Source: Bispira polyomma
Taxonomy: Eukaryota
Assembly: GCA_965649765.1 (NCBI GenBank)
Contig: OZ287756.1
Coordinates: 58,156,001-58,220,000, forward strand
Reading direction: 5' to 3'
DNA length: 64,000 nt
Shown: positions 1-60,620 of the stretch, one piece after another
How the letters are laid out: the number at the start of each line of letters is the position of its first letter
How positions within the stretch are numbered: position 1 is the stretch's first letter
Notes under the pieces: generated by a model
Database searches by the model: none
Told to the model about the DNA's origin: nothing
The model's input: the letters and a program-made list of their open reading frames with translations, nothing else
Made by a program: the position numbers and the translations under genes

Positions 1-630
1 CTGCACTGGACATAGGTGAGGGACAGAGATGGAAGGAAGCTGTATAACATGTGTAGAGGTCCTATCCTGCATATTCTTGACCCACTTAATAATTAAGTGG
101 GCCCCAGGGCAACCAAAGACCACATCCTGTCTAAGAATGTGTCTGGTGGGATCAAACTTAGCCCTAGAGTGGGGAGCGATATTGGAAAATCTTAAAAAGC
201 CACAGAAGGCCACAAGAAAAATGGATCTAAAAGGAATGGGGTCCTGTGATATATGACAGGCCTGAGAAATAAAGGACAAGTGTTTGATGGAGAATAACCC
301 TTTGGGAGAGGGCCTGAAGTGAGAGTTGTGTACCAAACTACGAATAAACAGAGAGATGGAATTGTAATGGAAAATATCTGGGAGGATATTAAACTTCTGG
401 GTCATGAACCTTAAAGCAGCCAGGTAGTTTTTAATAACTTTAGGGGAAAGGCCATTCTGGGCCAAGTACTCCAAAAAGGCCAAAATGGAGTGAATAGAGA
501 TATGGTGCATGTTAACATAATGCAGAAAAGAAAGAAATGTTCTAAACTGCGAAGTATAAGCTGCAGTGGTGGAAGGTCTGAGAGCTGTGTGGATTCTCCT
601 GATGGCAGTATCCCCCAGAGCCAATGATGC
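1..630 (-). pseudogene. Tyrosine recombinase of E1 (N-terminal and central part; continues beyond the window)
   Basis: Manual translation: AIRRIHTALRPSTTAAYTSQFRTFLSF ... FCGFLRFSNIAP ... KFDPTRHILRQDVVFG..GAHLIIKWVKNMQD ... LCPVQ. It includes the first catalytic Arg motif of DIRS/Ngaro YRs. Confidence 0.85.
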
Positions 631-647
631 TTGTGTGGAACCTGTAA

Positions 648-2300
648 TCAGATATTAAAATCTAAATTATGATAGTGTAAGGGGACATCTCTACGTGTGT
701 GTTTACTAAGTGCCAACATGGTTTGTGGATCAGGAGGACGTGTGGAATATACACGCGACAACGCGTCAGCGTATATATTATCCTTGCCTGGAATGTGTTG
801 AACTTTTATAGTAATGTCATGAATAGAGCAAATGAGCCAAATATTGCGTATACACGCAGCTATGAACGGGTCCTTAGTCTTGCTGGTCATAACAACCAGG
901 ACAACTGCCAGGTTGTTGCAATTAAAAGTAACCTTATGGTGAGCCCAGGATTCCCCCCAAACTCTAAGTGAAATGACAACATTGAGCATCTCCAACTGTG
1001 TAATGGCCAATCTTTGACCAAAAATGTTAATAATGGGTGTGAAATAAATTTCCTGGCCCCATAGGGCCCCCATACCTGTGAGACAGACGTCTAGATGAAG
1101 CTCATGTAAAAATTCGATATCCTTAAAATAGGGTTAAAATAGGTAATACCATTGTAAGCATGTAAGAAGTGAATAAACCAATCAAGGTCATATTTCATAT
1201 TATCAGTGACCTTAAACCTCTTGGAGTTAGGGGAAGCTCTAAGAACGGAAAGAAGCCTGTTAATAAAGCACCTAGCAGGTTTAACACACTTGTGTATATA
1301 AAGGAGCTTTCCTAAGAGGGACTGTAATCTAGTACAGCATAACCAGTTCTTACTACGTGCCTCTATGCACTCTAAGTGTATTTGGTCAATTTTTTCTTGT
1401 GTGATACTTATGGTACCTGCGGATATATCCACATCAATGCCCAGGTAAGTAACCTCAGTGGAGGGAGGAGAAATTTTACTGGGGTTCATGGGGAGACCTA
1501 GATCATCTAATAGACTACATAATTTCTCAAAACCTACCTTGGCCTTGACCTTAGTACATATGCAAAGGTAGTCATCAATGTAGCAATAGACTTTAAAACC
1601 TAAATTAAGCATGTGGTCTGCAATAATATCAGAGCATCTCTGAAAGGCTGCATTACCGAAAGCCTACCCAAAGGCAACCGCAGGATCAAGGTAGTATTTT
1701 CCATCCCACTTTATACCAAATTTGAGGCCGTCGACAGGGTCGACACGGAGGTTACGAAAGGCCCTGGAAATGTCCACCTTGGAGGCCACCGGGTCTATGG
1801 TATTATTGATGACATCTGTAACATTGTTAATAGTAGGAAATTTAAGTGAAAATTCGGTACCGTCAAATTGGTCAAGTACATGGTCATTAACTGAGGTGCC
1901 CTGAGGGTGTGAAAGGTTAAGTATTACCTGTCTATCTGTAATATCCTTAGGGTTGGTGAGTAAGGGAGAATAGGGGAGAATAGTGGTAATGTGGGTTTGC
2001 TAAGTTGGAAACAGGGCCTAACATAGCACCCTTACTTTTTTCTTTGTTAAGATACATGTTAACTGCATCAGGATATTGTAACGCAGAGTGATGATTAGTT
2101 ATATCTGTACGATTTAACTCAAAGGATTTACTTAAGGATATGGGAAATCCAAACTTTAAATACTGACAAATAAGTTGGTCAGGATGGTTATGTGTAATAA
2201 GTTCCCAAGCCGGGATATTCAAGCCACAGCTAATGGGAATACGAGCTTGAGCATAATTAGGTAAACCTGTGGATCTTATGGTGTCAGCAATGAGACACAT
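648..2300 (-). pseudogene. RT/RNase H (pol) of E1, frameshifted
   Basis: ORFs 1947-2300 (LKFGFP, GAMLGP), 1091-1612 (YIDD, YLGIDVD, LQSLLGKL, DLDWF) and 648-1073 (RNase H motifs) are successive pol fragments. Confidence 0.9.
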
Positions 2301-3316
2301 ATCATTAATTGAATTAATACAAAATCTTTATCAGGGCCAATGAACTGAAATTTTGTATCAGATTTGCTTAAAAAACCAACAGATTTATGGGAAACAACCA
2401 GGTCTTTAGTGTTATTTTTGGAAGAAGACGAATCAGCCATGACTAAGCTGCCAAGCTCTTCACAGCCATCGGAGACAATATCGGAACGCCGCATGATTCT
2501 AGTCTGAGTAAGTTTATTAACAGAACATTCATTACTGGCAGTACTATCAATCATGACATCATCTGCCTTGATGATGCCATCAATGATTTCCTGCATATAA
2601 ACTGTGTAATCATATCCCCGTACCCACAGGGAATTATCGTCTTTTAAATAGTTTTCATGAGCTAATTTAGAGTTGTTTTGAAATTCATTGAGTTGTTGAA
2701 AATTCAAAAAGTTGTAATCAATCAGTATCTTAGCTTGGAACATATAGGAAACACCAAAAGGAAAGCTAGGTATGTCCCCTAAGGGAACATAACTGACGTT
2801 GTCCCTATAACAATTTTGATAATAGAAACCTGAGGCACTGGTGTAGTCAGGAAAATCCAAAAATACAACAGGGTGATGCCCACAATTATTGACATATAAG
2901 AAATCCAAGACAGAGATACTGCAGGCCATATTCCAATAATCAACATATGAGGGGGCACTGTTAACCAAAACAGAGTGAATATCATTACCAGAATCATGAT
3001 GATCCCAATTTTCGAGTACATTATGAAAACCAAAATTTTTAAGACCACCAGTATTCATAGTCGAGGGCTTCTCACAATGAGGCAAAACATTATACAAATT
3101 ATCATATGTGGCATTACATTGATTGTTAACAGAATGTTTATAAAATGTCTGGCTGCCTGTGCAGCTTTTTTCCCCAACTCATGTCTTAACTAAATTACTA
3201 TCAAAGTCACTGAAACAAGAGTCATTGCAATCTGAACTTACACTATTGATTTTACTTTCACAATTAATTACACAACTTTTACTGGCAGAGTCTGTCCTGA
3301 ATCGTCGACCACCATC

Positions 3317-4407
3317 CTAGGTAGTTTTGGCAGAATTGGCTTTAAGGCACTTGAATTCCGGGTGGTTATTTTCTTTGTTCAAAACCTTGAAAAAATGCGC
3401 ACAATTATGTTTGTACTGGTTGTGATCTCTGTCGTGGCTACAGGAGCCTGAGTTAAAGTACTTGCAAATTACCTTGGGCTTCTGAGAAACCTGTTGTATG
3501 GTATGACCATTCACAAGGGTCAACTGAGAAACACTAAGTCTGTTTAATGACCATTGAGTGGCGTTAGCCCAGTCGAGCCTGCCTTCTTCCAATTCCTGCA
3601 TGCTATGTCCCCATGCAGTTGTGACGGTAGGCCATGGGAGAACGTTGGCGTCTCTAAACACATAGATCATCTGATGTAGCATACATTTCATGGTGGTAAT
3701 CTTAGAAACCTGAGCAATATTAGATAGCTGTCTGGCTGCCCACTGGGGCATGGAGAGTTCATCGAACTGTGGTCGTTTCTGGGCCGTACTCCCCACCCAG
3801 CCTTCATTCGCCCACCTAGCATGTGGTTCAGTAAGGCAAATGTCAGTGGAATTAAATCGACCTGATTTCTGCCTGGGGGGGGCTTACCTTGGGAGAGATC
3901 CTGCTGGTAGCGTTGGTCATAAGATGCAAGATGCAAGTTGACGGCAGCGCTGACTTCTGGGATACTTCTTAACACATCTACCCTCGGGACAATGCCGTCT
4001 TGCGTGTAGTCGTTATTGGCCTGCATCTGACATGTAGCTTGTCCCTGAACGGGGAGAGTGTTGGCAAGTCCAACAGGGGGCTGTGGACGTAGATCCGGAC
4101 ATCGAAGGTCCACCACAGTGTCATTGTGAGGAGGGTTATGGGGCGAACCCAACGGGGTAGAGTTTCTGGACGTCTCGACACGATCCAATCTTCTGTGTAT
4201 GTCGGCGTTGGCGGACTCCAGCCTTTGGAGTATGGCCATCATAGCAGTATTGTCCGGTATCACGTTCTCGGAAGGAACATCAGATTTACTGGCCTCGGAC
4301 ACAGGGACTCTAAGATTTCGGACGACCGGATCAGATACTTTACCCCTTCTAGTTGACTTGGTCTTTGCTGGCGCGCTACCCGGCGTTTTCTTAGCAGTCC
4401 GTCCCAT
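3317..4407 (-). pseudogene. gag-like ORF of E1 with C-terminal Cys/His knuckle
   Basis: ORFs 3688-4449 and 3317-3796 join by a frameshift. The C-terminus CKYFNSGSCSHDRDHNQYKHNCAH...HPEFKC matches the gag ends of E2-E4. Likely start is MGRTAKK at 4407. Confidence 0.8.
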
Positions 4408-4737
4408 AATAATGCAATAGTGGTGTGAATGAGTGTAAACTAAAAACAAATAAACACTGAAATCAATAAAAACGCTAGCATAAGTTCACAATTATAAATT
4501 TTTAAAATGTTTTCTGACTTGATGTTTACCCTTGTACACTTGGGGTGAAAATGGTGCCTGAGCAGGGGCCAAAAACACAAAATCATAAAGCATGTGCAGT
4601 GTGATTGGTTCATAGCTAATGAGGGATGGACAGAATGGGGAACAAGAATAGTCCCCTTAAAAAAGAAAAGTAAGGGGGTTAGGAACTGAGACAGCAGGCC
4701 CCCTAAAGGGGTCTTGCTAGTAACACCTTCTGGAACT

Positions 4738-7700
4738 TTAAAATATCCAAGCCAAACTAGAAGTGAGGGGGGATAGCAGAAGCAAAAGTGAGGGGGACAG
4801 TAGATGTAGCATGAGAGGTCTTATGCAAATAGGTCCATACTGCTGAAGACCTCCAAAGACCATGGGCCATATTATTTTGTAGGGACACATTATTGTTGAA
4901 AGCAAATGTGGCCCCAGACCTACCAAAAGTATAAAAACTGTGTGATTTGGCAGGAATGCCAACATGTGATAATACTGTAATAATATTTTTTGCCTATTTG
5001 ATAATTATATGGGCCCCAGGTGGGCCAAATACAACATCTTGCCTCAACCAGTGACGTGAGGGGTCAAACTTTTTCCTAGAATGTGGTGTGATGTTTGAAA
5101 TCCTTAGAAAACCATAAAACAACAGTTATAAGATTGACATATGGTAGACAGGATTCAAAGATCCCTCTAGGTTGAGGACTAAACTGTGAATTATGGATTA
5201 GGCTTCTTGTAAACATGGATATTGTGTTGTTTTCAACAATATTTATATCCCATCTGTACCTTTTAGCCATAAATCTTATTGCACCTATGTAGTTGTTCAC
5301 AGCGTTAGGTGAATTGCCATTTTGAACCAGATACTCAAATAATGCAATTATTGTATTTTTTATTGATTTCAGTTATTTTTGTAAAATAAAATATGAGGCC
5401 CGCATTTTTGGTCTAAGTACTGTATTCAATCTATTCAATGTTGCTTTCATATTATGCTGTGTGAAGTAAGTGGAACCTCAAATTATATTTTAAAATTCAC
5501 ATTGAAGAACTGTATGGGTACATTATGCCACATATAATTCCTTTTTGTAAATGTTGAGCTTGTTCCATATTAGGTATCTGAAATACATTTCTTTTTACCT
5601 CTAACATGTTTGATCTCAATGGTAATATCAAAAGCAGCCATATATTCCTTAAACAAAGTGATAGAAAATTATCCTTAGTTTTCAATGTTGTCACAATTAA
5701 TAATGATTTTTCTATGTGCCCACTGATCGCCCCAAATCCCAAAATATTTAACATTTCAATGTGAACAATTAAAAAATCCTGTCCATAGAAATTATATAGA
5801 GGTGAAGCATATACCTCATTCTTAAATACTCCTCCCAGTCCTGTTAAAAACGCATCTATGAAATCAGCTTTGCTTTCATCAGTGCTTTCATCAGTGCTTT
5901 TCATCGTTTAGCATTAGCATTTTTCGTGGAAGCCATAAGTAATCTGTTGATAAATATTTGTGCCGGCTTCACGCATTTGTGAATATATAATAGTCGACCT
6001 AATATTGATTGAAATTTTGAATCTGACACCTACTTCTTATTAATAAATTCTAAACAGATATAATGTAATAATTTTCTCTTCTGTTATACTGATAATTCCT
6101 GTTTCTATATCAATATCTACGCCTAAACAAGTGACCTTTGTGTCAGGTAGTGATAGTTTGTCCTGGTTAATAGGTAAGCCTAGCAAAGTAACTAAATTAT
6201 AAAGGTCTTTGAAGGCCTCATCGGATTTGTTTTTTGTCGATACTAATATATAGTTGTCGATATAGCAGAAACGTGCCCTAACTGCTGCATTGTAAATGCT
6301 ATGATGTCAAAATATCTCTGAAATGCCGCCGAGCCGTGAACCAAGCCGAACGAAACCACAAGATCGATGTATTTTTCACCTTTATAACATATCCCTGAAA
6401 CTCAAACTCCGTATGAGAAAGTGCTATAAAACCCTTGGTTTTTCTTGGTAATTAAAATCCGTAATAACCTGTGTCTCATGAGCAGTTTAGAAAATTAGTC
6501 AGAGAAGTCAGGCAACGCCAACATAAGATTACCATTCACATTTGATACATTGTAATTGTTAGTACAGCTAGATTCGACAGACGTAATTTGTTTCATGTTT
6601 GCCCATTAAAACTATCTTTCTCAATAAATTTTCCTGTAATATATGAAATGTACTCTGTATAGTCATGTCCATATCTTTTCATATATTCCTGATCTTTGTT
6701 TCTGTTGTATTTAACACAACTATGGGGCCAGTGGACAATTCCTGGCATAATATATAGTCATATAGCTGACTGCCAGGGTGATATTTCTGGGTATAAAACC
6801 CAGCCATGCTACCTTCAACGGATCTGACATATAAAACAGAAAGAATTTCCTTATCCTCACACAATGGCAGTGACTAGCTTATTCTAAGAATCCACATAAC
6901 TATTAGTATTATCTGACTCCATTGCTTCAACTACTGGGGTATTCTGGAATACATGATAATTACAGGTGTTAGTTACATTATTATTTCCATCACTATTTAC
7001 ATTATTGTGATTGCTGTGAACATAATGCACTCTAGCTTTCTAATTTTCTTGGTTTTCATAATGCCCCCTTCCAGACTTATGTTCCCGATTGGTTAAGTAA
7101 TGTTCACACCATTCACTATAAATGACAGATTTCAATTGCTCACCAGAATGGCTTGCTACTAATATTTTATTATTATTGTGACATGTTTCTACAAAATAAT
7201 TCAGATCTAGACTTATTACTATCATTTATCTTTACTTTTCCAACGTCAATGTCATGTGTTTCACAATTTTGCCCTATAACATTTAAATTCAGGATGTGTG
7301 GCATCCTTCTTTAATACTGTCGCACAATGCAAACAAATGTGCTTATACTGCCCGTGGTCATTTTGATGGGAGCATTTCCCTGAGTTGAATATGGTTCTGC
7401 CCGATTATGACGACTGTGTTGGAAGAGAATGAGCTTGAAAGCTTGAAGAATTTGTAGTGAAAGAATTAGTCATTGCCATCTGTGATGCACTTAGCAGGTT
7501 CAGGGCCCATTGAGTAGTATCATTCTATCCGAGTCGTCCCTCTTCTACCTCGTGCATGCTGAGAGACTATGCCGTTTGAACTACCCCTTAATGTAGTAAA
7601 GCTGCTTCCCGAAGGGGGAGTACAACTTTTTGGATCATACCGCGATAGACTCTGGGGTGTGTAACTTAAAGGCCATTGGCTAACTGACGTGCTACCCATT

Positions 7701-8700
7701 GTGGGAAAGTTAAGTCATTCTACATGGGGCGTTTCCGAGAGGCACCGCCTTCCCATCCTTCGTTGGCCCACCTAAACCTCAGTTCAGCAGGAATGTCCAT
7801 AGTATTGAAATGCCCAGATTTCTGATGCTTACCTTGAGAAAGTCTGCACTGTACATAGGCCTCGTACTGGGCCAGTCTTTGATTCACCATGGCTTGTACG
7901 TCAGGGTTGGCTTTCAACATCTCCAAAGAAGGAACTATCCCGTGCTTTAGATATTGTTGTTGACTCGAACCTGCCATCTGAGCTGTGTTACTGGTCGAGA
8001 ATGCACCCACATTCGCCATCATCGTAGCCATGTCATTACTAACTGGGGTACGAGCCGTCATCTGTTCTGAACTCTGTATGAGTTAGCCGGCTGGATTTGA
8101 TCAGTGTTGCCGAACTGTAATGACAAGAGCTGTCCCTGACTGGAGGAAAACGAGTTATGATATAATTCAGATAGCATTTCCGAGTTTACCTGCTTGACTT
8201 TTTATGTTCTTGTTGCCTTTCCTTTCATCATGCTTTTGCTGGTGGTTATTTAGGAACGGTCGTCCTTGTAGTTTGCCCCATATTATGTACCATTACACAT
8301 ATAAAAGATTACAACAGTTTAAAATATACTCAAAATTATAACAAACAAAAAAATGGAATCCTAAAAAACTAAAATATACACCATTTACACACATAAGCGC
8401 CAATTTTGTGATGCTGCTCTGTCAAAGTGTGCTTCCAATATGAAAGGGTGCCCTGTGGTATTGCCCATGTTTGGGGATTTAATGAATCTGATTGGTTATT
8501 GGCAAAATGAAGTAGTGGTCGAGACTGCCCATAGGGATTAAGGTGGTCATATAACCAAGTGGAGAACTACAATAGCATACCCCTTTGTGGTCATGCTGTC
8601 TAAAGAGCGCCAAATTGATGAGAACATCCTCTTTTGCGCTGATATCCAAAAAGAGTAAGTCCGGGTGCAAGAAAAAAGGTTGTTCCTAAAAAGCATTTAC
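4738..8700 (-). mobile_element. Ngaro/DIRS-type retrotransposon, copy E2 (heavily decayed, internally deleted; same broad family as E1 and E3)
   Basis: gag fragments at 8281-7260 (GIVPSLEMLKANPDVQAMVNQRL, RWANEGW). RT remnant ~6000-6400 (SFGLVHGSAAFQR, CYIDNY). RNase H 5497-5904 (DAFLTGLGG, IEMLN). YR ~5400-4738 (IMAHGLWRSSAVWTYL). The RT N-terminal part is missing. The 5' boundary is approximate. Confidence 0.85.
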
Positions 8701-30234: not shown

Positions 30235-33200
30235 ATGGCAAAGACATCGAAGGTACAACTTTATTTTTAGATTGTTTTTGTTTTAATAAAATTCTCAAAT
30301 ATCTATTTTATATTTTTTAATTTACTTTTTTTAAGTTCCAAGAAAAACATCTGCTTGTTTGCCCTCCATAATTTTGATTTAGCCTGGTAACTGATTTTTT
30401 TTATACAAAATAACCCGGTGTTTAAATGATCTGCAATTGTTTTATAGCTTAGAATAATAATTTTAAACAACTAAATGTGATCAAACAGAAACTTAAAACT
30501 AATTTTGTGCTTGACTGTGTTCCTGTAGTATGAAATATTGTCATAAGATTTAGAACAAACCTCTTTCAAAATTTCAGAAAGCGAAAGGGAAATATAAAAA
30601 GTACCCTAGAGGTGACCTGGTTAATGCAGTCAAAAAAGTTGCTTCAGGGCAACAACTGAGTAAAGTTTCCAAAACCTATAACCTGCCAAGCTCCACACTT
30701 GATTACAGAAAGAAACCATCAAAATTAGACAGTACACCTCCTAAATAAATTTCTAACTGTTGAAGAAGAACAGTCACTCTGTAGTTACATAGGGGGGATG
30801 GCTGAGCATAACTTTGCTATTACCAGAATTTTGTTGAAATCAATGGTCAATAAAATTTTAGAGCGTAAGGGAATCAAAGTGACACCATCAAAGAAATGGT
30901 ATCAACGATTTATTAAAAAGAATGGTCTTTTGTTCAAAGTTCCAAAACAAGTAGATCCTGGACGTTTAAGAGCAGCTAATGGGAAAAACATAGGTCCATA
31001 CTTTGATATGTTACAGTCAACCATTGATCAGTTCAATCTAAATGACCATCCAGAACTGATCTTCAATGTCGACGAGACAGGGTTTAGTAAAGAATTGAAC
31101 ACACAAACCAAAGTAATTGTGCCAGTTGGTCAAAGACCAGTAACTACCCAAATTTTCACAAATGATCACACAACATCAGTGCATACAATTTAAGGATCAG
31201 GTTTAGTTATATCTCCCATGGTTATTTTCAAAAAATCTATTCCATTGTCTCTTAGAAATCAGGAACAAAACAACTGGCTCTATCGAAATACCAAAACTGG
31301 TTTCTTTAATACAAAGCTTTTCATGGAATGGTTTAGTGCTATTTTTGTGAAAGAAGCCCCAGCACAAAGACCTCTGTTGGTAATTCTTGATGCACATAGT
31401 ACTCATGTTGGTTTTGAATTTGTTGAGTGTACCAAAAGAGAGAACATTTAAGTCTTATCCCTGCCAAGCAAAACAAGTGACAAATTGCAACCTCTGGACC
31501 AGATTTTTTATGTTCTTAAGGGACAATTTTCAAATCTTGCGCTTTACTTAATGTTGGTGAGTGGTGACATTTTGGTGAATCAAGCAAAATTTCCATGCAT
31601 ACTATAGCTAGCCATGGATCAGGCGTGGACAAAGCATGCCATCAAATTGTCATTCAAAATAACAGGTATTAATTCTTTTGTGTATGTTATGCCAGTTATA
31701 AACAAATTTTAATACAAGACATAATTGTACTAATTTGGTAAATTGAGACACATGCATTGATATATATACAACATATAACTATTCAAAACTAATTATTATA
31801 TTGGTACTAACATGATACATTTTATTTTGAAATTTGAGCCCTCGATAATTATTTTTAATACTCAACTTCTATCTTAATTTGCTAGGCATTATTCCATACG
31901 ACAGAAAAGTCATAAAGATACCTCAACCAACATCTGCTACTGTGCAGGATAGGCAAATACCAAGGAAAGAGAGCGAAGGACGTTGTCTCATATGCAAACA
32001 ATTGAGCCCTTGTCCTTTTTGTTTTCAGGTCTGGGTTGTCATGAAGTAACAGTATCCCAATAGAATAGTTTGATTTAAGAATACATTTTCAATTACAATT
32101 CATGTTTTAGTTTAAATGTAGTGATAGAAAAATAAAACCAATCTAAACACTAAACCGAACAATTCCAGATATATAACTTTATATAACATATGGTGTATAT
32201 ATACATTAATTCTGATTTCTCACATATCGGATGAGATGTTGATGTTGTCAACAATCAATATTTACCAGCATATTTGCTCTTAAGTTAATTTAGTGAAATA
32301 TATTTTGTATAGGAATATGCTGCTAACTTAAATCGTTTGGTAAGGCAAGGTGTTTATTCTGCTACTTTGTTTGATGTCTGTGTTCCACCCATGAATAGTT
32401 CTGGTCACACTTCTCAGCAGTCCACCTCTGTCAGTTCAACATCAACTCGTCATTTATGGAGAAAAGCTAGAATGCTGACAGGTGTCTGTTACAATTATCA
32501 TTTCAATTTCTTATAAATTGTACTACATATCAGTTATATTATGTGGTTATCCATACTAAAATCATATGTTCATGTCTCTTACTGCAATTTTCTGGGCACT
32601 ATGATGGCCTAGTGGTTAGAACACTTCACTTCTCAATGATAGGCGTCTCACCAAAATGGGTTCTAATATTCATTCATGTGGGAAAGTTTGTCACGTACTT
32701 GATGTAGGTTGGTTGTTAAGTGCTTCAAAATATTGGTTTCCTCCACTCCTCCAAATATGATTTTAGTGACATTGTCTTAGCTGTTAAAAATACCTTCAAA
32801 CCAATCTAAATTAATGTTTACTATTTGACTACTGATACTGTATCTTCGGAAATTAATTTGCCATACTAAAAAATTTCAAATAGAATTGTTTTGTACAAAT
32901 ATTCTGTGCATTTCCCCAGATGACATATTTATTCAGGACAGACAAAACCCAGGCCAGGGAACTGTGGAACAAGGTAAAATTTATGTCATGATCATACAAA
33001 GGTGTTAACAGTATGTAGTTTTCTGTGAAAAAATAAAATCAGTCATTTTGTACCAACTTCTAATAGGGTAGAAATTGCTTGAGAAACCACCCATTAAAAA
33101 TTAACAAATTATTTTGATCACATCCATACATCTAAGTTTATTATGAACATTGTTTCTATTTTTCAGATACCGTCTTTTTATACAGCTTCATATGTATGCA

Positions 33201-34450
33201 AGTTCATTATGAATTATGTTTCTTTTTCCAGATATTGTCATTTCATATGACCTTACACTTATGGAAGTGAATCTTCAACAATATGAAATCATATATTGTA
33301 ATTTATAGGAGCATGCGGCGTGTTAAAGTAAATTTACTTTCAGAACCTTATCGTACTTCAATTTTGGTACTTTAATTCTGACAAAGGTACTTTTTACATT
33401 ATATTTCATGTTTTCTACAGCAGATTGTCAAGGAGTGTCTGTTGACACTGTCGTTGAACAAGAAACAGATTTACAGCTGAAATTACACCTGAAATTACGT
33501 ACCCTAAACACAGAAGAAGAAAGTTTAGGAAAGGTATAACAATATAAACTATGTAAAATTTTGCTCTATGTCTAATAAATTTGGATAGAATTTTTTTAAT
33601 ATGAATGAGATATGTTTTTTTTTTCTTTGTTTCAGTTCCTGCAGGATCTCATCAAACTACTAACACTGCTGAAAGATGTGAACCTAATACAAAAGGCAAA
33701 GGAAAAAAAATTAAAAAGGGTATACACTTTACATCCAGACTATTATTTTTACATGATATAATTATGTAGTTTTTCATTTTGGGGATAAACAAAAAACTAT
33801 CATATGTACCATTTTAGATTCACACAAGATAATACAAGACAGTGTCTGCAGAACTTCTAACAGAATTGACTCAGGATTGACTACTCTGCGCTTAATGAAG
33901 GGCAGACATTGGAAGAGTCTAGGTACTTCTTTTGTATTACAATATTATTGATTGTCTACATTTTATGGTGATATATTGGTAAATATTGTTTGCATTTCAC
34001 AATTTCAAAAACTGTAATTGTCTAATGTAAATACTAACCTAAACTGATATTTTCTCTTGTAAATATCTTGATGTTTATATTTCTTTACACAGGATTGAAA
34101 TCTGTGCCAGGTGTAAAATTCCTAGAAACCACACTGAAGATGAAGTATTTCATATCCAGTGGTATCAATGCTCCCTATGTCTGAGATGGTGGCACCGCCA
34201 TTGTCTGCCAGACATACCGATAGCTGACTTATCTGTCATTGAGAACAACAACTTCAGATGCCCAGCATGCCCTGATATGCCCATTTGCTGTGTCTGTCTC
34301 GGACATGTTTCTAATTTAGAGGCAGCACAGTGCCACATTTGTTTGGGACAATATCATCCGCAATGTCTGAGAATGCAAGACCAGATCGAACTCAGCATTA
34401 ACATAGAAAATAGAAGAAACTGGTATTGCTTCAGATGCCAAGAAGAATAG
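30235..34450 (+). pseudogene. Spliced pogo-family transposase (HTH/CENP-B, DDE_1) with C-terminal double PHD finger; several premature stops
   Basis: Exon 30235-30252 (MAKTSK) splices to 30578-31665 (KYKKYPRGDLVNAV...FNVDETG...LLVILDAHSTH...LQPLDQ...FKITG). Then 31886-32028 (GIIPYD), 32313-32481 (KARMLT), several small exons, and final exon 34093-34450 with two C4HC3 fingers. Stops at e.g. 31191 and 31449. The small middle exons are tentative. Confidence 0.8.
32595..32805 (+). mobile_element. Degenerate tRNA-derived SINE inside a transposase intron
   Basis: tggcctagtggttag head, gtctcacc, atgtgggaaagtttgtc and ggtttcctccac, shared with the other SINE copies. Confidence 0.7.
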
Positions 34451-38960: not shown

Positions 38961-39827
38961 AAACGGTTGACCATTCATGTAGAGCTTTTTTATTTGATGC
39001 CTGGTGCATCAGTGTTTAGTAATTTGGTTTCAAGTGTTATGGTATTGTTTGCCTAAACATTCGGCTTGTTTACATGGATATTGAAGAAGGTTGTAGGCCA
39101 ATACTATATAGGTCACGGGTGAGATAGGGTCCACACGCACCCACCCCCACATCTTCTTAATAAAGTTAGGTTTTTCTGAAGCCTAAGCATCTCTAGAATA
39201 TGAAATGGAATTGTAACATTGAAAATATTGGGATGCATTAACAATTTGAGACATAAATGTGAAAGTACCCAAAAAAGGTAAATCTACCGCTTTTTGGTCA
39301 ATGCAAAATAAGAAAATGCTCAATGTTTGTTGTTATTTATTCATTTAGTAAAACCAAAAGGGGCTATGGTATATATTATATAAAAGCACACTTGATAGGC
39401 TATCTGAAGATGTATAGGTATAGCGTATTATAAAATTAGTATGTGATATTTTGCACCTCATACATAAATGAAGATGTTAAAAATTAACAATTTTGCAAAG
39501 TAGACCTTATGTTTTCAAAATATCAGATGAACTTTTCTCCAGTCAATTTAACTGGGAGTTTTCTGCGACTTAGAGGGATGTCAGGCGATTCAATAATAAT
39601 AATAATATCAATATTGCTGACAAACATAAAAAATAACCAGAAGGTGCACTGTGAGAAGATACCGCCGCCAATATTGATGTATTCTGATCAGCAGTCATCC
39701 CCATTTCACCAGTCTTTGTTGATCAGAAACCATAATAATTACAAAAGTATTTTCGAAAACTGTATTTGTTCTAATGTGCCATAGTCTGAGCTACAAACAG
39801 TGTGTAGTTAAAAGTTTTAGCCTAATT

Positions 39828-51736: not shown

Positions 51737-54700
51737 TTACTCATAATTCAAATTCATTGCAGTCGGCCCCATGGGCCTAGGACACCTACTGCCTGGCAAG
51801 GGGAGACCCAGCCTCTCAGAGCCCATATTCAACCCTGGCTACCTAAACATGATGCTCAGGGGTGGGTTAAAGCAGACTTTATTAACCCCCGACTCGGCCC
51901 AGTGGGCGGACTGCAAATAGTTCGAATTATCAGTAAGTTGAAAGAACCTTAACTTGCTGTGGTAAGGGGAGGAGGTGGGCAAGTTTTCCTGTGTGTGTGC
52001 TTCAATGTCGAAAAGCTTAATGGCAAATTTAAGGAGGGAAAATGCATTGTCGAATTAAACAAAGAACTGGTTGCATGTATGTGTGGATAGAGAGAGCAAA
52101 AAAAAGTCAGTTCAGTCGCCATGGGTGAAGGTAGTTTATAAGATTTAAAGCACTTGGGCAACTGAAGTCCCAGACCCCTCTATGGTCATGATATCTACAG
52201 TTTGCCCAAGTTGGTGAGATAAGTTAAGGGTAAGTATGTGAGGTAATGTGTTCAGGGGTCTATATAATGCTTCTGGTTTGAGATATTTATATCTGTACAT
52301 GTTAAAAAATTATTTACAAGTAAAAGTGGTTTAAAAGAGTTTAAGAGTTATAAGAAAATTTTTTAAAAGACCCAAGCCAAGCTATAAAAATTTAGGAATA
52401 GGGGCAGCATAGGTGAGGGGGACTGTGGAGGCCGCCTGTGAGGTTTTTTGAAGATATGTCAAGACAGCTGAGGATCTCCACAGTCCGTGTGACATTATGT
52501 TTTGTAATGATACATTATTGTTGAATGCAAATGAAGGCCCTGAATGTCTAAATGTATGAAACGTGTGAGATTTTTGAGGAATTCCTGAAAATGTGAGGAC
52601 AGATGCCAAAGCAGAACGTATGTGTGTATCTACTTTTGGTTCATATGGAGGTATGCAGCCAACAAATAATGGGTAAGTATCTGGAAGAGGTCTGGACATT
52701 AGAAGCTGCTGTAAAGCCTTAACTGGGCAAAGGTTTCTGTTGTCTAATAATGGAATTTGTATGATATCTAGTTTGTAGGGTCTTTGCCCATTTAAGTATC
52801 ACATGGGCCCCTGGTGGGCCAAATATCAGGTATTTTCTTAACAAGTGACGTGTGTTATCAAATTGGACTCTAGAGTGGGGAGCAATATTTGACATTTTAA
52901 GAAACCAAAGAATGAAAGATGGAAAATTGCTCTATATAGTATGAGATCACTTAATGTATTGCAGGCTTTGTAAGTCAATGCTAGGTGGTGTATTTCAAAA
53001 ATTCCTTTTGGTTGAGATTTAAAAAGTGAGTTGTGGGTCAAGCTTCCTAAAAACATGGCCACAGTGTTGTTCTCAAATATATGTATATTTCAGGAGCACC
53101 TTCTTGCCATAAACTTGATGGCTCCCGTGGAGGTGCCATTCTGTGCCAAATACTCTAAAAAAGCTATAACCACCTGTGTGGTTATAATATGAATGCCAGC
53201 AAAAACATTAAAGGCAATGTAATAATCTAAAACTAATTATTATAAGTTGCAAAAGTTTTTGGTCTTAAGGCTGTGTTGAGTCTGCACCAGACTGACCCCA
53301 TGAGTGCTTGTGTGACCTGTGTTGACCCTGAAATTACATAATAAGTTAAAAAAGTGAAGTGGGATATGGTGCCACATAAACTCTTGTTTTAACAGTATAT
53401 TTCTTTCCCTATCTGAATAGTGGTCAGAGTATACACTGGACAATGAGTCCGTTATACAGTTCTTTTTATCCTTAATGTGGTCAATTTGTAAGCTAATATC
53501 ATATTGTCCTGATATCAGCCATACGTTTCTAAGACACAGGGCTAGGAATTCATCCTTAGTCCTGTTGGAACCAACGACTAGTACCACAGCCATGTTGTCA
53601 CAGAATATCTTGATTGTACTACGTGCCCACTGTTTCTCCCAGAGTTTAAGTGCTTTTGAAATATTGAGCATCTCTATGTATAAAATAGAAAGTTGATGAT
53701 CATATACGTTGTAGAGGTGGGAGGCATAGACCTACCTGTTGAACATACCCCCTACACCTGTTAGGCACACGTCTATATAGACAACATTAGTTTCGACGTC
53801 AAGCTTTTCAATGTAAGTGATTCTGTTGTACAGCTTAAGGAAAACGACAAATCATGCAATGTTTGCCTTCATGGCCTCTGTGATTTTAAATTGTTTCGCC
53901 TGCGCATTACCTCGAAAGGCCATGAGAAGTCTATTTATAAAACCCTTGCAGGTTTAATGCACTTGTGTATGTACAAGAGTTTGCCTAATAGAGACTGAAA
54001 TTTTGCACGAGATATCCATTGCTTATTAACAATTTCCACACACAGCTTGTGAGTGTCCTCAATTTTATCTTGGGTTATGCTGATGGTGCCTTTAGCAATG
54101 TCTATATCTATGCCTAAACAAGTTACTCTAATATCATGAGTTGAAAGTTTGTCTACATTGATAGGAAGACCTAGAGAATCGACTAATTGGTTTAAATCCT
54201 GAAACACTTTCTCAGCTGTATCGCTACTTGATATACTGACGTAATTGTCCATTTTACAAAAGACCTGATAGTTTAATTTTTTTTCTAGGCATAAGCTATC
54301 ATATTGGAGCATTGCTGGAAAGCGGCAAAGCTGTGGACCCAGCCGAACGTGACCGCTGGATACATGTATTTTTCTCCTTCAAAACATATGCCTAATTTGA
54401 GTCTATGGGGTCAACCTGCAAATTTCGAAACGCCCGAAAAACGTCCAACTTAAATATCTTGGTGTCCTTGGTTTGACGTATTTGTTTGACTATGTCATCA
54501 ATAGTAGGAAACTTGAGCACAAATTGAATGTTGTCAAATAATTGCTTGTTGACATTATCGTTGACCGATTTCCCTTGTGGGTATGACAAGTTAAGTATGA
54601 CACAACATTTGTTTAGGTCTTTTGGTCGAGTGAGGAGGGGCGCACAGTGATATAAATTGCTATGTACTTCTTTAACTGGGGCCAACATGGCACCATTGGC

Positions 54701-56440
54701 TTTTTCTTTCTCAAGATGTTATCTAATTGCAACTTTAAATTGTAAGGTTGAATGATGATTGGTGGCCTCCCCTGTATTTAGTGAAGTGGGGTCATCCAAA
54801 GACAGGGGGAAGCCAAATTTCAAGTACTGGAGTAATAATTTATCTGGGTGGTCAATTAACATTTTTTCCCATTAATCAATGTTCAAACCAGATTTAAGGG
54901 GAATGCGTGCCCCTCTGTAATTTGGGCACCCCGAGTCCTTAATAATGTTTGCTATTTTGAACATCTGGTCAATTGATGAAATTAAGAAAGGAGCCCTGTC
55001 TGGGCCTGTAAAAGTAAAATTAGAAACACCAGAAACCCATTATTTTTGTCAGGTAGGTCAGTGACATTCTTGTTTTTGCAATGGTAAGACATGTACATTT
55101 CTGAGCAGTCGGTAGGCGGCGTCAAGACATTACCCTGTGTGCTATCCACACTTGGTACATTTGATTTAATTATTAGCACCCAAAATTTGATCAATTAAAT
55201 CTGTCACATGATCAGTATAATTTCACTCATATTTGTAAAGTGACAAGATGTCTTTTTGCTGATCTGCCAATACTTCCTTCGGTGACATGTCACCTGCAGT
55301 ACCTGCCTCAGCAGTAGCCTTAACAGATTCCAGGTCACCAGAAGTGTATGTGACATGAACATATGTTTCAATGGTTTGTATTTTTGAAGTGGGGCCTGGT
55401 ATCTGGTAAAGAGTCAAATTTTAAATAGTCATATCTCTGACGAAGAGCATTTGATTTTTGAATAAAGAAACCTGTTATTTCCACATTAGTAGATCTAATA
55501 TGAATAACGGGCAAAATTTCCTCAGAATCTGGAAACCAATTTGTCACCTGAATTGTCACATCACACTTATTAGTGATATAACCTGAATCTGATCTGATGT
55601 CTGTTTTAGCCTTTCTTGGAAGGCCATTATATTGTTATATAACTTAAAAATGTGTCCAGCTGATTTGGGGCACAGTTATGGTTCACCCACATATTATTAA
55701 CACAATTAGTTTCTAATTTTTCAGTCACATTTAAGTCATTCATTATGGCTGTGCTGCCATTAAATTTTGTTTTCTTTACAATACTGTCCTTTCCACTACT
55801 AATAATATCTGAAAATGATATACTATTAATGTCATTATTACTGTCATTACTTAAAACGCTCATGTCCTTACAATGGTTACTGGCCTAGTTACTGGTTGTT
55901 TTACCTTCTTGTTGTTTCAAAGAATTGGCCCTATAGCACTTGAATTCCGGGTGGAGTGATTCCTTGTGCAGTGGAGCAGTGCCAACATATGTGTCTATAT
56001 TGACCGTGATCGGACTTGTTGGTGTATTTGCCTGCGTTAAATAATTTGCAGATAGTTCTGGCCGATTGTGGTGGCCATTGTCATCTGCGCAGCGTTCATC
56101 CGGTTGAGAGCACACTGTGTTTTGTCGCCCCACTGCAACTGCCTTCTTTGACTTCATGCATGTTATGCAACCATGATGTTCTTGCTACGTCCCATGAGAA
56201 AGAAGCGGCGTCCCTTAACAACAGAATAACTTGTTGAACCATTTCACATGATGTTTCCGAATCAGTAAGCTGCATGGCGTTCCACAGCTGGCCGGCTGCC
56301 CATTGCGGAAGTGACAATTCATCAAATATGGGACGCTTTTGAGCTGTCCCGTTCAACCAGCCTTCCTTGGGCCATCTAAGTTTTTGGTTCACGAGCGCCT
56401 GGACTTCAGTGATGGATTTTAGAACTTCTACCTTTGGAAG
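51737..56440 (-). mobile_element. Ngaro/DIRS-type retrotransposon, copy E3 (5' end lost; same broad family as E1 and E2)
   Basis: gag C-half 56440-55885 (RWPKEGWLNGTAQKRPIFDELSLPQWAAGQL). RT ~54950-53800 (KFPTIDDI, KLDVFRAFRNL). RNase H (FCDNMAVV). YR ~53330-52365 (HTFHTFRHSG, HGLWRSSAVLTYL). About 600 bp of 3' non-coding sequence with an approximate boundary. Confidence 0.88.
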
Positions 56441-59400
56441 TCAGAATACATCAGACCTGAGGGGAGAAAAGTGAGAAGCTGCATAAGGAACAAGATTGGA
56501 CAAACGAAGAAATGAGAAGAAGCTAATTAAGTACAGAGCTTTAAACACGAGTCCCATGTAGGTAGAATGGCACATGAACACAATATTTTTGAGAGTGTCA
56601 ATGTCAAAAACCTTTTTGAGTTTTACATTCAGGGGTGCAGACAATTTAACAGCCTTTTGGTAGTAAGCTATACGAGGGTCACTGAAGGCATTTATATCAA
56701 TGTCGTGTATTATGGACTGGGCCCTGATTGCAGACAAATAATTTGCTATATAAGCAGGTTTGACTGAATTAAAATGTAACGTTTCTAAGAAACATAATAA
56801 ATGGAGCGCAGTCACCTGATGTACATACTGTGAAAGCCAGGTACACACGGTACATGGCCTTGTAGGACCTGGCAATGGATCTGCAGAAGGCCAAATGTAG
56901 TTTTTTGGTGGCATTACAATACAGTTGCTTTTGTAAGGGAGTCTTGTCTGAAATACAGAAAAATGACAGGAAGACTGATGCAAACACATTTATATAGCAT
57001 TATTTAGTATTAGATGTTCATGAAAAACTGGACACCACTGAGCTGCACCTACAAATTTTTGCTACTGAACATAGTCCTGGGGCGAACCCTTCCACCTGGA
57101 GAGCAAATCAGCAGTGGTGTTGTGTTCGTCCAAGATGTGTATAACCTGTAATTCGACATCATACTGACTAGCTAACATGAATATGTTTCTTGAATATAAA
57201 ACCAAAGTACTGTCTATGGTTCTACCATGTGTAAGCACACTCACCACAGCTTGGTTGTCACATCTGATTAGAACTTTTTGACCATGCCACAAGGGTCCCC
57301 ACAATTTTAAGGCGACAGATATGTTGAGCATTTCTAATGAAGCAATATTCAAAGTTTGTAGTTCAACAGGAGTGTCTAGTGTGTATACTTTTTGGCCAAA
57401 CCGCCCCCCTTCCCCCATGCCTGTGAGGCATGCATCTAGCTCAACTGTGACAGTGACGGGGTTATGGTGAAAAAAGGAGACACCATTGAATTTTTTGAGA
57501 AAAGTACGAAACCAGTTTAAGTCTTTCAGAAATTCTGTGCTCACTTTAGAGGTTTTGGCTTTGTAATTGCTCCTAAGCAGATGCAACATATGATTCAAGA
57601 AGAATCTTGAGTACTTGACACATTTGGGAACGTAAAGAAGGGAGCCCAGTAGACACTGGAGTTCCCTTCTGGTACAGTATCTTTTCCCTGACCACTTATC
57701 ACACATGTTCTGAATACTAGACAATTTATCCTCTGGAATAAAATCGACTGTATTTAGAACAATACCCAGACCTGTAACTTTAGTGTTAGGAGGGACTAGT
57801 TTCTTGTCACTGAGTGTCAAACCTAGCTCGGCCAATAAGTCTATAAGTCGTTGGTACCATAGATTTTAGAGGGTATCGAGCAACAAAGGAGATCGTCGAT
57901 ATAGTTGACCTTTACCTGTCATTATATATCTGACCCCATCATGCTTGTAGCCAAAAGGCAAAGAACCGTCCATGTAGTACCCCTCCCAGTACAGGCCTTA
58001 TAAGTTTAGTTCTCTCGGGTTTATAGGCAGGTGTCTGAAGGCACGGCTGATGTCTGCTTTAAAGATTAAAGAGCCTCTACCCCTAGCAAGTACCTGAGAA
58101 ATTATCGTGTCAATGGAAGGATAAGTTAACATGAACTGTCTGCCCAAGTATGACTCAGGACACACGGCAGTATTTACTGAGTGACCTTCAGGCCAACTCA
58201 AGTCGATTATGACACGACGGTTGGTAGAACTTGACTTGTCACGTATCATGAACGGTGAAGTGTGTAATTCAGGAAGTGGTGTCACATCGAAGGGACCATA
58301 CATAGCCCCAAAGTCACATTCCTCTTTTAACTAATGTTCGATGTGTTCCAGGTACTGATCAGCAGAAGCGTGATTTTTGAGTTCAGACTTAAACTCATGT
58401 TGGTCTACAAAATCGAGGGGAAAACCAAACTTCTTAAGCAACGGGAGTTCCCAATCCCAGTAGCCTTTCAAGTAGCTAAACCAAACTGTGGCATTCAGCT
58501 GGGAAGCAACTAGGATCTGTAGACCCTTATAGTTTGGACGCCCATCCCGCTTAATACATTGGTGTAGCTTTAACCCATTCACAAGATGCTGGTTTTGAGA
58601 ATTGTCAGAGATATTATGACCCCCAAGATGATAGGGGAATGAAGCCAAACTTGCCACCACTTTGGACATCCCATAACTTGAAGGTATCACAATGTTTTGC
58701 ATCATTTAATTTTTTCCTTTTATCAGTAGCCCGGCACATGTATAAAGCATACTTGTCATCGGACAAGTTAGTTTTGGCATCGACCTTTTCATCAGTCACC
58801 GAGGACACCACATTATTGTTTTTATTCACAGGCGACTTGGTCACACAAAGGGGGGCCTCAACACAATCACCCAATTTGGCATTTTCTTCCAGAGAATGGG
58901 TGTGAAGCACGCCAAACCTATTAAAGAGTGTTATGCAAAATTCATTGTTGGCACCTCCCTCTTTTTGGGCAATGTCCTTTTCTCGCCCAGGTCTTTTGTA
59001 GGGTAATTAAGCCCCTTGGACACTGTTAATGAATTAGTTTTGACACCCCTTTTGTTTTGAGGCTTTACAACAAGGCTATGGCCCTCTGGCCACCTGGCTC
59101 AATTTGTTTCACACACAGTCTTATGCACACTTTTGTTCACATGCTTTCTCAGCACATTACCCTTTTGGTTTAAATTACAGACTTTATTTTCAACAAAATC
59201 TTTTTGAGGGACACCTCTCCCAATTTCGCCCACAACAGAAACTCCCCTTGGGTGTTTAATATTTGCGTGTCCCCTTACAAGTGCATCTTTGTAAGACTTA
59301 CACACATTTGTTTTGAAACAAGCATAGTTTTTTAAAAAACTGTCTGATAATAATCCAAAATCTTTAAACTTTGAGTGATACACAACTCGGCTAAATACTG

Positions 59401-60620
59401 GTTTCCCCACTGCATTTCTGTAGTGGGCCCTTAGTTTTTGGACTTTTTTGGACATAATTTTGTTTGATGGCTGCCATCACAAGTTTCACAACAATGTTTA
59501 AAGAGTTGACCAGAAGTTCTATGGGTAGCATTGAACTTACAGGTCCCCTCCTGAAAAAATCTACATATCACGCCCTGACTCTTGCATAGTAACTTTGTTT
59601 TACTACCAACGGATTTAAAACCAGTACCACTACTGAAACTGCCCGATACGTGACGTTGGGCATGTGCCCGACGGATTCGATCGACCTTGTCCACATCTGT
59701 CCACTTAAGGCGGTCCAATTCCATGTTGGTTAAAAGTCGTGTGCGTCATCCATAAGATTGGCAAAATATTCCAACATGGCTTCCTTAATTTCTGGGGATT
59801 TTTGTTTTTGTACACACTTTATGAATCCTGAAGTAAACTGAACCAAGGTTAAGTCGTCGTAGGTGGGTCTAACCTTCTTAGCACCTGAGAGCACGAAATT
59901 TTGAGACCAATCGACTGCATTTTTAATAGGACCATCAGTACCCCCATGTTGGGACTTGAGTTTACCTGCTCCAGTCAGTTGGTGGAGCTGCTGGAGCTGG
60001 AGTAACCGTTGGTCTACCTGGGTTTGCAAATTTTCGTTTGACCGCAGAAAATCTAGAAACGGAACTACAGCCTCCACCACTGGTTCAATTATTCTTGGGG
60101 TAACAACATTGGAGACTACATTAGCACTGGTAGTAGGTAAGATACTAGCCTTATTGGCGCTGGGTGTGCACAGCGCCGCCTCCGTCACCTTAATGCGTTG
60201 ATCCATGCTGTCCATTTTACTATTGAGAGACTGCAATTGTTGTAAAATTAACTCAGATACCAAATCCGACTGACAAGCAGTGGATTCAACCATAGGCACA
60301 TCCTCGGCGACGCTGGCATCAATAAACCGACATTTTTTGCCCACAGAGCGTTCGTGTCTCCCCATACATGCATTACACTGGTATTCTCGTTTTGGAGCCA
60401 TGACAATAATTAAAAGCTTTAAAACATTAAAAAGGGTAATAAACACCCAATTGTAAAAGCACTGTCACTTTGACCAGTTAAAGTTTTAATGATGGCGCTG
60501 GTTGGCGCCAAACCCTTATATATGTGCCCTCGTGACCCCAGGTGGCCTAATTAGCCCCCCAGTAGCCTGGTACCAGAACTGAGGGGGCTGACACTGAGGC
60601 GTCACCAAAAACATGGATAA
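56441..60620 (-). mobile_element. Ngaro/DIRS-type retrotransposon, copy E4 (different family; YR C-terminus and 3' end lost)
   Basis: gag 60401-59431 (N-terminal CNACMGRH...C; C-terminal CRFFQEGTC...HCCETCDGSHQTKLC). RT (RRVIIDLSWP, KADISRAFRHL, YIDD). RNase H (LDACLTGMG, CDNQAVV, ADLLSR). YR truncated after FSFLRLSNLVP. The 5' boundary is approximate. Confidence 0.88.

Follow-up and report, generated by a model that had tools for sequence, protein, structure and literature searches.

Three of the four tyrosine recombinase (YR) retrotransposon copies in a 64-kb window of Bispira polyomma DNA (contig OZ287756.1, positions 58,156,001–58,220,000) carry, between gag and the reverse transcriptase (RT), a domain of 125–134 residues that is restricted to one clade of Ngaro-type retrotransposons. 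The domain is almost certainly real and kept under selection; it is an accessory domain, apparently without a name, in a type of element already known. The four copies (E1–E4) are all on the minus strand and all decayed. A first-pass annotation of this window, the whole stretch of DNA analysed, had reported a motif of about 45 amino acids (aa) in three of them. All three motif peptides are present, but the unit to which they belong is about three times larger.

About 4725 to 1, minus strand: E1, YR element whose recombinase open reading frame (ORF) runs past the window edge
About 8300–4740, minus strand: E2, YR element of the domain clade
About 56440–52380, minus strand: E3, YR element of the domain clade
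56441–60464, minus strand: E4, related YR element of the sister clade without the domain, used as control
2878–2780, minus strand: E1 motif peptide, strands 2–4 of the predicted beta module
6849–6748, minus strand: E2 motif peptide
55520–55419, minus strand: E3 motif peptide
2558–2932, minus strand: E1 domain copy, 125 aa in one open frame (alignment; hidden Markov model (HMM) of natural copies, independent E-value (iE) 3e-30)
6614–6858, minus strand: E2 domain copy, decayed, spread over two frames and lacking its central part (HMM iE 2.6e-8 and 1.4e-4)
55172–55568, minus strand: E3 domain copy in two frames (HMM iE 4.4e-9 and 1.4e-10)

The E2 and E3 motif peptides align without gaps, as had been noticed at first pass, with 14 of 36 positions identical (tblastn E 7.5e-6). 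Whole gag–RT spacers were compared in all three minus-strand frames with 300 codon shuffles. The best E2–E3 spacer score is 75, while the shuffle maximum is 50, and none of the 300 shuffles scores as high. An advantage over shuffled controls does not extend to the E1 pairs from the window alone, the score being reached by 20/300 shuffles for E1–E2 and 40/300 for E1–E3. Spacer pairs involving E4 are not significant (218–225 of 300 shuffles as high). The homology of E1, a guess from the window alone, is settled by further copies in the genome: profiles of E1-type and E3-type sequences (11 copies each) align over 124 columns with 20% identity (probability 99.4, E 8e-22).

These copies come from the window's own genome (1.035 Gb, 75 contigs). 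A search with the E3 peptide yielded 186 candidates; 150 were scored, and 148 of these matched at E up to 10. For the E1 peptide there were 168 candidates, of which 150 were likewise scored and 148 matched at E up to 1. We fetched 40 stretches, picked mainly for long open frames across the match. In them the motif is part of the pol frame, 0–280 codons past the frame start, inside a block that can be aligned over its whole length between widely differing families and makes up about 40% of the gag–pol spacer. At C7:24.3–25.0 Mb of the same genome, six equal-scoring decayed copies lie about 125–148 kb apart, a spacing that suggests a large tandem segmental repeat.

The ratio of nonsynonymous to synonymous substitution (dN/dS) was pooled over 10 non-overlapping pairs (Nei–Gojobori, codon bootstrap), 4 of 30 copies having been dropped because they lacked an anchor. 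The domain has a dN/dS of 0.29 (95% bootstrap 0.24–0.36), with synonymous sites saturated between families and with all values inflated by post-insertion mutations. Its beta and helical parts have similar ratios (0.27 and 0.25). The sequence upstream of the domain reaches 0.73 (0.63–0.87) and the linker of 57–87 aa between domain and pol core 0.52 (0.41–0.72); in the pol core, the ratio over the first 170 codons is 0.18 (0.14–0.22). The other five frames contain stops in 12 of 12 copies checked. The earlier proposal that the N-terminal extension of pol holds an accessory domain under selection is thus borne out.

A search with the pol of locus L031 returned 116 proteins, all from the European Nucleotide Archive (ENA) and all unnamed. 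The domain is present in 95 at E up to 1e-5. In 19 of the other 21 the gene call begins only downstream of the domain; the remaining two (P0083 and P0114) have long N-termini lacking it. A FastTree phylogeny of the pol core was built from 107 of 135 sequences, 28 being lost to the anchor or length filter (midpoint root, no reference sequences). It places these two with six E4-clade pols and separates them from every domain bearer (support 0.994). The nine bearers of the window's genome are placed apart from the ENA bearers, which therefore stem from one or more further genomes. An HMM scan of 1.84 billion representative sequences gave 119 matches: 36 continue into the pol core, another 76 stop within 75 aa, and the remaining 7 carry unmatched tails. 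One of these 7, a repeat protein of 5,168 aa, was rejected as a chance hit. The best identity of scan matches to copies of the window's genome is 54%, and the ten clusters looked up are all from ENA and all unnamed.

The motif had not been seen in E4 at first pass. The HMM agrees, finding no match in the E4 spacer, and the domain is absent from the pol N-terminus of all 20 fetched E4-clade loci (L086–L105), where the extensions are basic and of low complexity. One partial match occurs in L104, on another stretch of that locus. The domain may have been gained in one clade or lost in the other. In the E4 clade, gag and pol overlap in different frames, the extension before the core carries a net charge of +15 to +30 and short motifs of its own, and a recent burst is suggested by at least fourteen equal-scoring copies, each with a frame of 878 codons. 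A pol-core query gave 5,821 first-look candidates in the genome, both clades combined.

The carriers combine a gag-like ORF, RT/RNase H and a tyrosine recombinase in one element, which places them in the order DIRS. Pfam RVT_1, RVT_3, Phage_int_SAM and Phage_integrase are matched in them, and intact ORFs occur in further copies. Split direct repeats (A1...B1-A2-B2) are found in two of six loci, L067 and L070, and were not found in L031, L046, L037 and L088. Pol ORFs end about 35–40 aa past RNase H, and five full pols contain no methyltransferase. The Ngaro-like label fits this structure as defined in the available text of PMC9210276, with the limit that PAT-like elements share the split direct repeats; Ngaro-like elements are set apart from them by an RT/RNase H phylogeny in which they group with Ngaro1_DR and Lv_Ngaro2. 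The gag-like ORF of E1 is homologous to the intact ORF1 of L031 and L046.

L067, A 1170–1389 and 6380–6599, B 6226–6380 and 7103–7257: split direct repeats of a locus 95% identical to E1
4504–4725, minus strand: E1 left terminal repeat (A1 of the split direct repeats), 95% match to both L067 A copies
3317–4407, minus strand: E1 gag-like ORF, two broken frames, C-terminal Cys/His zinc-finger-like motif
648–2327, minus strand: E1 pol core, RT and RNase H in several broken frames (Pfam RVT_1 E 6e-6, RVT_3 E 3.5e-4)
1–654, minus strand: E1 tyrosine recombinase ORF, past the window edge (Pfam Phage_int_SAM)
3317–3319, minus strand: E1 gag stop TAG, then G; it shares the domain's frame and is a putative site of readthrough
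55885–55887, minus strand: E3 gag stop TAG, then G (from sequence)
L031, 2637–2660: example of the putative readthrough signal, TAG-G plus the +10 to +18 motif

Judged from its sequence context, the gag UAG is likely read through, which would yield a Gag-Pol fusion. The zinc-finger end of gag gave 35 matches, 30 of them true ends of domain-clade loci, and TAG-G is present in 30/30. The other five comprise three TAA and one TGA that are off-target, and one TGA from the decayed E2. The frame is open from the gag TAG through the domain in 17 of the 30 loci, a share biased upward by the choice of loci with long frames. Downstream of the stop, A at +12 and C at +13 are invariant in 15/15 copies (one per family or subfamily), and C at +10, A at +15, C at +16 and A at +18 are kept in 12–14 of the 15. 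No conserved RNA structure (pseudoknot or stem) was found near the gag stop, and the first methionines upstream of the domain stand at no shared position. Murine leukaemia virus (MuLV) ribosomes read through the gag UAG, according to the available text of PMC8310308; for the gag-UGA-pol of Candida Tca2, that of PMC2194720 indicates that stop flanks alone need not give readthrough.

The YR is probably expressed as a Gag-YR fusion through splicing, which would skip pol and the domain. A phase-1 donor AG/GTAA lies inside gag in 37/37 pattern matches from both clades, and a phase-1 YAG is located where the ATG-less YR frame begins in 30 of 32 cases in the domain clade.

Donor 3887–3886 and acceptor 643–642, minus strand: predicted splice sites of E1; others in the 7832, 59965 and 53329 regions

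The domain is predicted to comprise a small beta-barrel module and a two-helix hairpin with a flexible joint between them.

2720–2935, minus strand: predicted five-stranded beta module, including the motif (AlphaFold of the E1 stretch, strands 2–73)
2558–2683, minus strand: predicted hairpin of two helices, showing the highest conservation within the domain (D, Y, I and D at 90–99% weighted frequency)

A deeper AlphaFold model, that of L031, has a predicted local distance difference test (pLDDT) score of 89–95 per block for residues 1–70. The first-pass description of a small beta-rich domain holds for the beta module, but the best conservation is found in the C-terminal hairpin. AlphaFold leaves the helix pair unpacked, and the hairpin has a conserved hydrophobic face. 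The domain is acidic in composition, and its beta module is small, acidic and aromatic-rich; aromatics are conserved in the domain, basic residues are not. No column is invariant among 106 aligned domain rows. His30 is 41% and Cys56 68% conserved, and conserved Asp residues are located in the helices. As at first pass, no described domain is recognised: sequence comparisons gave no match to a named family (Pfam: none among 43 members), and fold comparisons gave no confident one. Nor was the domain found in the available text of the literature searched, which lay outside Repbase, Dfam, subscription papers and supplements.

We favour, at a probability of roughly 40%, a non-catalytic docking or dimerisation module within the Gag-Pol particle. 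Ribosomes would pass the gag UAG at a low rate, and the domain would sit between two flexible, fast-evolving tethers, at the slot where long terminal repeat (LTR) elements have their protease. The helix pair would pack on a second copy of the domain or on a partner, and the acidic, aromatic beta face would bind a basic protein, be it Gag, RT or recombinase. The outcome would be that unprocessed Gag-Pol is held in the element's particle. As there is no catalytic residue set, the domain probably binds something; given the unpacked hairpin and its conserved hydrophobic face, pairing with a partner is the simplest option, and a basic protein partner suits the acidic aromatic surface.

It is possible, with a smaller share of our confidence, that the OB-like (oligonucleotide/oligosaccharide-binding) beta module binds the element RNA or single-stranded cDNA for the RT and passes it to the recombinase, while the helices dimerise. 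DIRS-1 produces single-stranded cDNA, according to the available text of PMC7192593. OB-fold single-strand binders present a basic and aromatic face; in the domain the aromatics are conserved and the basic residues are not.

We consider two further readings improbable, and about equally so. A host-facing module that recognises a chromatin protein or mark and directs integration accordingly would suit the small, acidic, aromatic-rich beta module, and precedents exist in the chromodomain (PMC6338049) and in the MBD of Copia (PMC6673714), as far as the available text of these sources goes. However, no Tudor, chromo, PWWP or MBD chain is among the best 50 fold matches per list, which does not amount to exclusion, and the domain is fused to the RT, while the predicted Gag-YR splice would take it out of the recombinase message. 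Alternatively, the domain could be a structural appendage serving the fold or stability of the RT itself rather than an independent interaction module. It was found only in this pol context, and the unpacked helix pair could pack on the RT; against this, the linker that separates it from the core is under weaker selection and the sister clade does without it.

Less probable again is an enzymatic role, such as that of an unrecognised protease processing Gag-Pol. The slot between gag-UAG and RT is the protease slot of gammaretroviral Gag-Pol (MuLV; available text of PMC8310308), and one Cys is conserved at 68%. The lack of any invariant column, the modest conservation of His30 and Cys56 and the helical position of the conserved Asp residues argue against it. 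The retropepsin motif D[ST]G occurs in 8/106 rows within the domain span, with no conserved column of this kind, and no protease rises above noise in any fold list. Chance likeness or neutral descent of non-coding spacer DNA, with which the E1 pairwise scores would agree, is refuted by the profile–profile match, the HMM copies, the low dN/dS and the families of another genome that carry the domain at no more than 54% identity, and keeps a negligible probability.

In the window, different-family elements stand head to tail or nested (1–8300 and 52380–60464): the YR end of E2 is directly abutted by the start of E1, and the broken YR of E4 adjoins a remnant of the E3 gag.

43941–47798, plus strand: non-LTR retrotransposon ORF (endonuclease, RT, zf-RVT) with one in-frame stop
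39234–39819, 42977–43554 and 48007–48119: repeats of about 110 and 590 bp beside the non-LTR ORF
34043–34450, plus strand: double PHD-finger ORF fragment
30729–31193, plus strand: Tc5/pogo-type helix-turn-helix fragment
49260–50178: tandem array of 67-bp period, about 14 copies

To our knowledge, RNA packaging, the completion of single-stranded cDNA and its hand-over to the recombinase without protease or integrase are poorly known in YR retrotransposons. A 125-aa domain between Gag and RT that is selected, clade-defining and predicted to fold would be a small expressible target for this question, with the sister clade as a natural control, and it is a classification marker for a very abundant lineage. 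The furthest-reaching version seems unlikely: a new family with a new or divergent OB-like fold, clade-defining in animal Ngaro elements, that provides a dedicated single-strand-binding or assembly factor in the protease slot of a readthrough Gag-Pol. If true, no such factor would have been known before for YR retrotransposons, and it would offer a way into the question of how their single-stranded cDNA gets to the recombinase. The present value lies in an apparently new domain family and a testable lead, the function being a proposal only.

With Ngaro-like elements, as described in the available text of PMC9210276, the carriers share the order of gag-like ORF, RT/RNase H and YR, the split direct repeats and the absence of a methyltransferase. 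They differ in the extra pol N-terminal domain, which that text does not mention, in that gag and pol do not overlap but share one frame with a TAG between them, and in that no SGNH hydrolase ORF was seen after the YR among ORFs of at least 200 aa, no targeted scan having been made. Accessory domains of other retrotransposons include the chromodomain, DnaQ and DAM/DCM methylases (PMC6338049) and the MBD in Copia (PMC6673714). From the available text of both sources, these are likewise clade-restricted, dispensable extras in pol; they are recognisable captured families, whereas this domain has no sequence match or confident fold match. The single in-frame stop between gag and pol resembles MuLV gag-UAG-pol and Tca2 gag-UGA-pol (available text of PMC8310308 and PMC2194720), with the short primary motif at +10 to +18 in place of a pseudoknot or stem. 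The predicted beta module, five-stranded and of about 75 aa, is a tentative full-length match to OB-fold proteins (eS28, uS12, Pf3 SSB, baculovirus LEF-3, HIN, TOBE), and the hairpin of about 40 aa with its G-x-S/T-like turn may resemble both ribbon-helix-helix proteins (PutA52, DinJ, CopASO, TacA2) and the RAG1 nonamer-binding domain.
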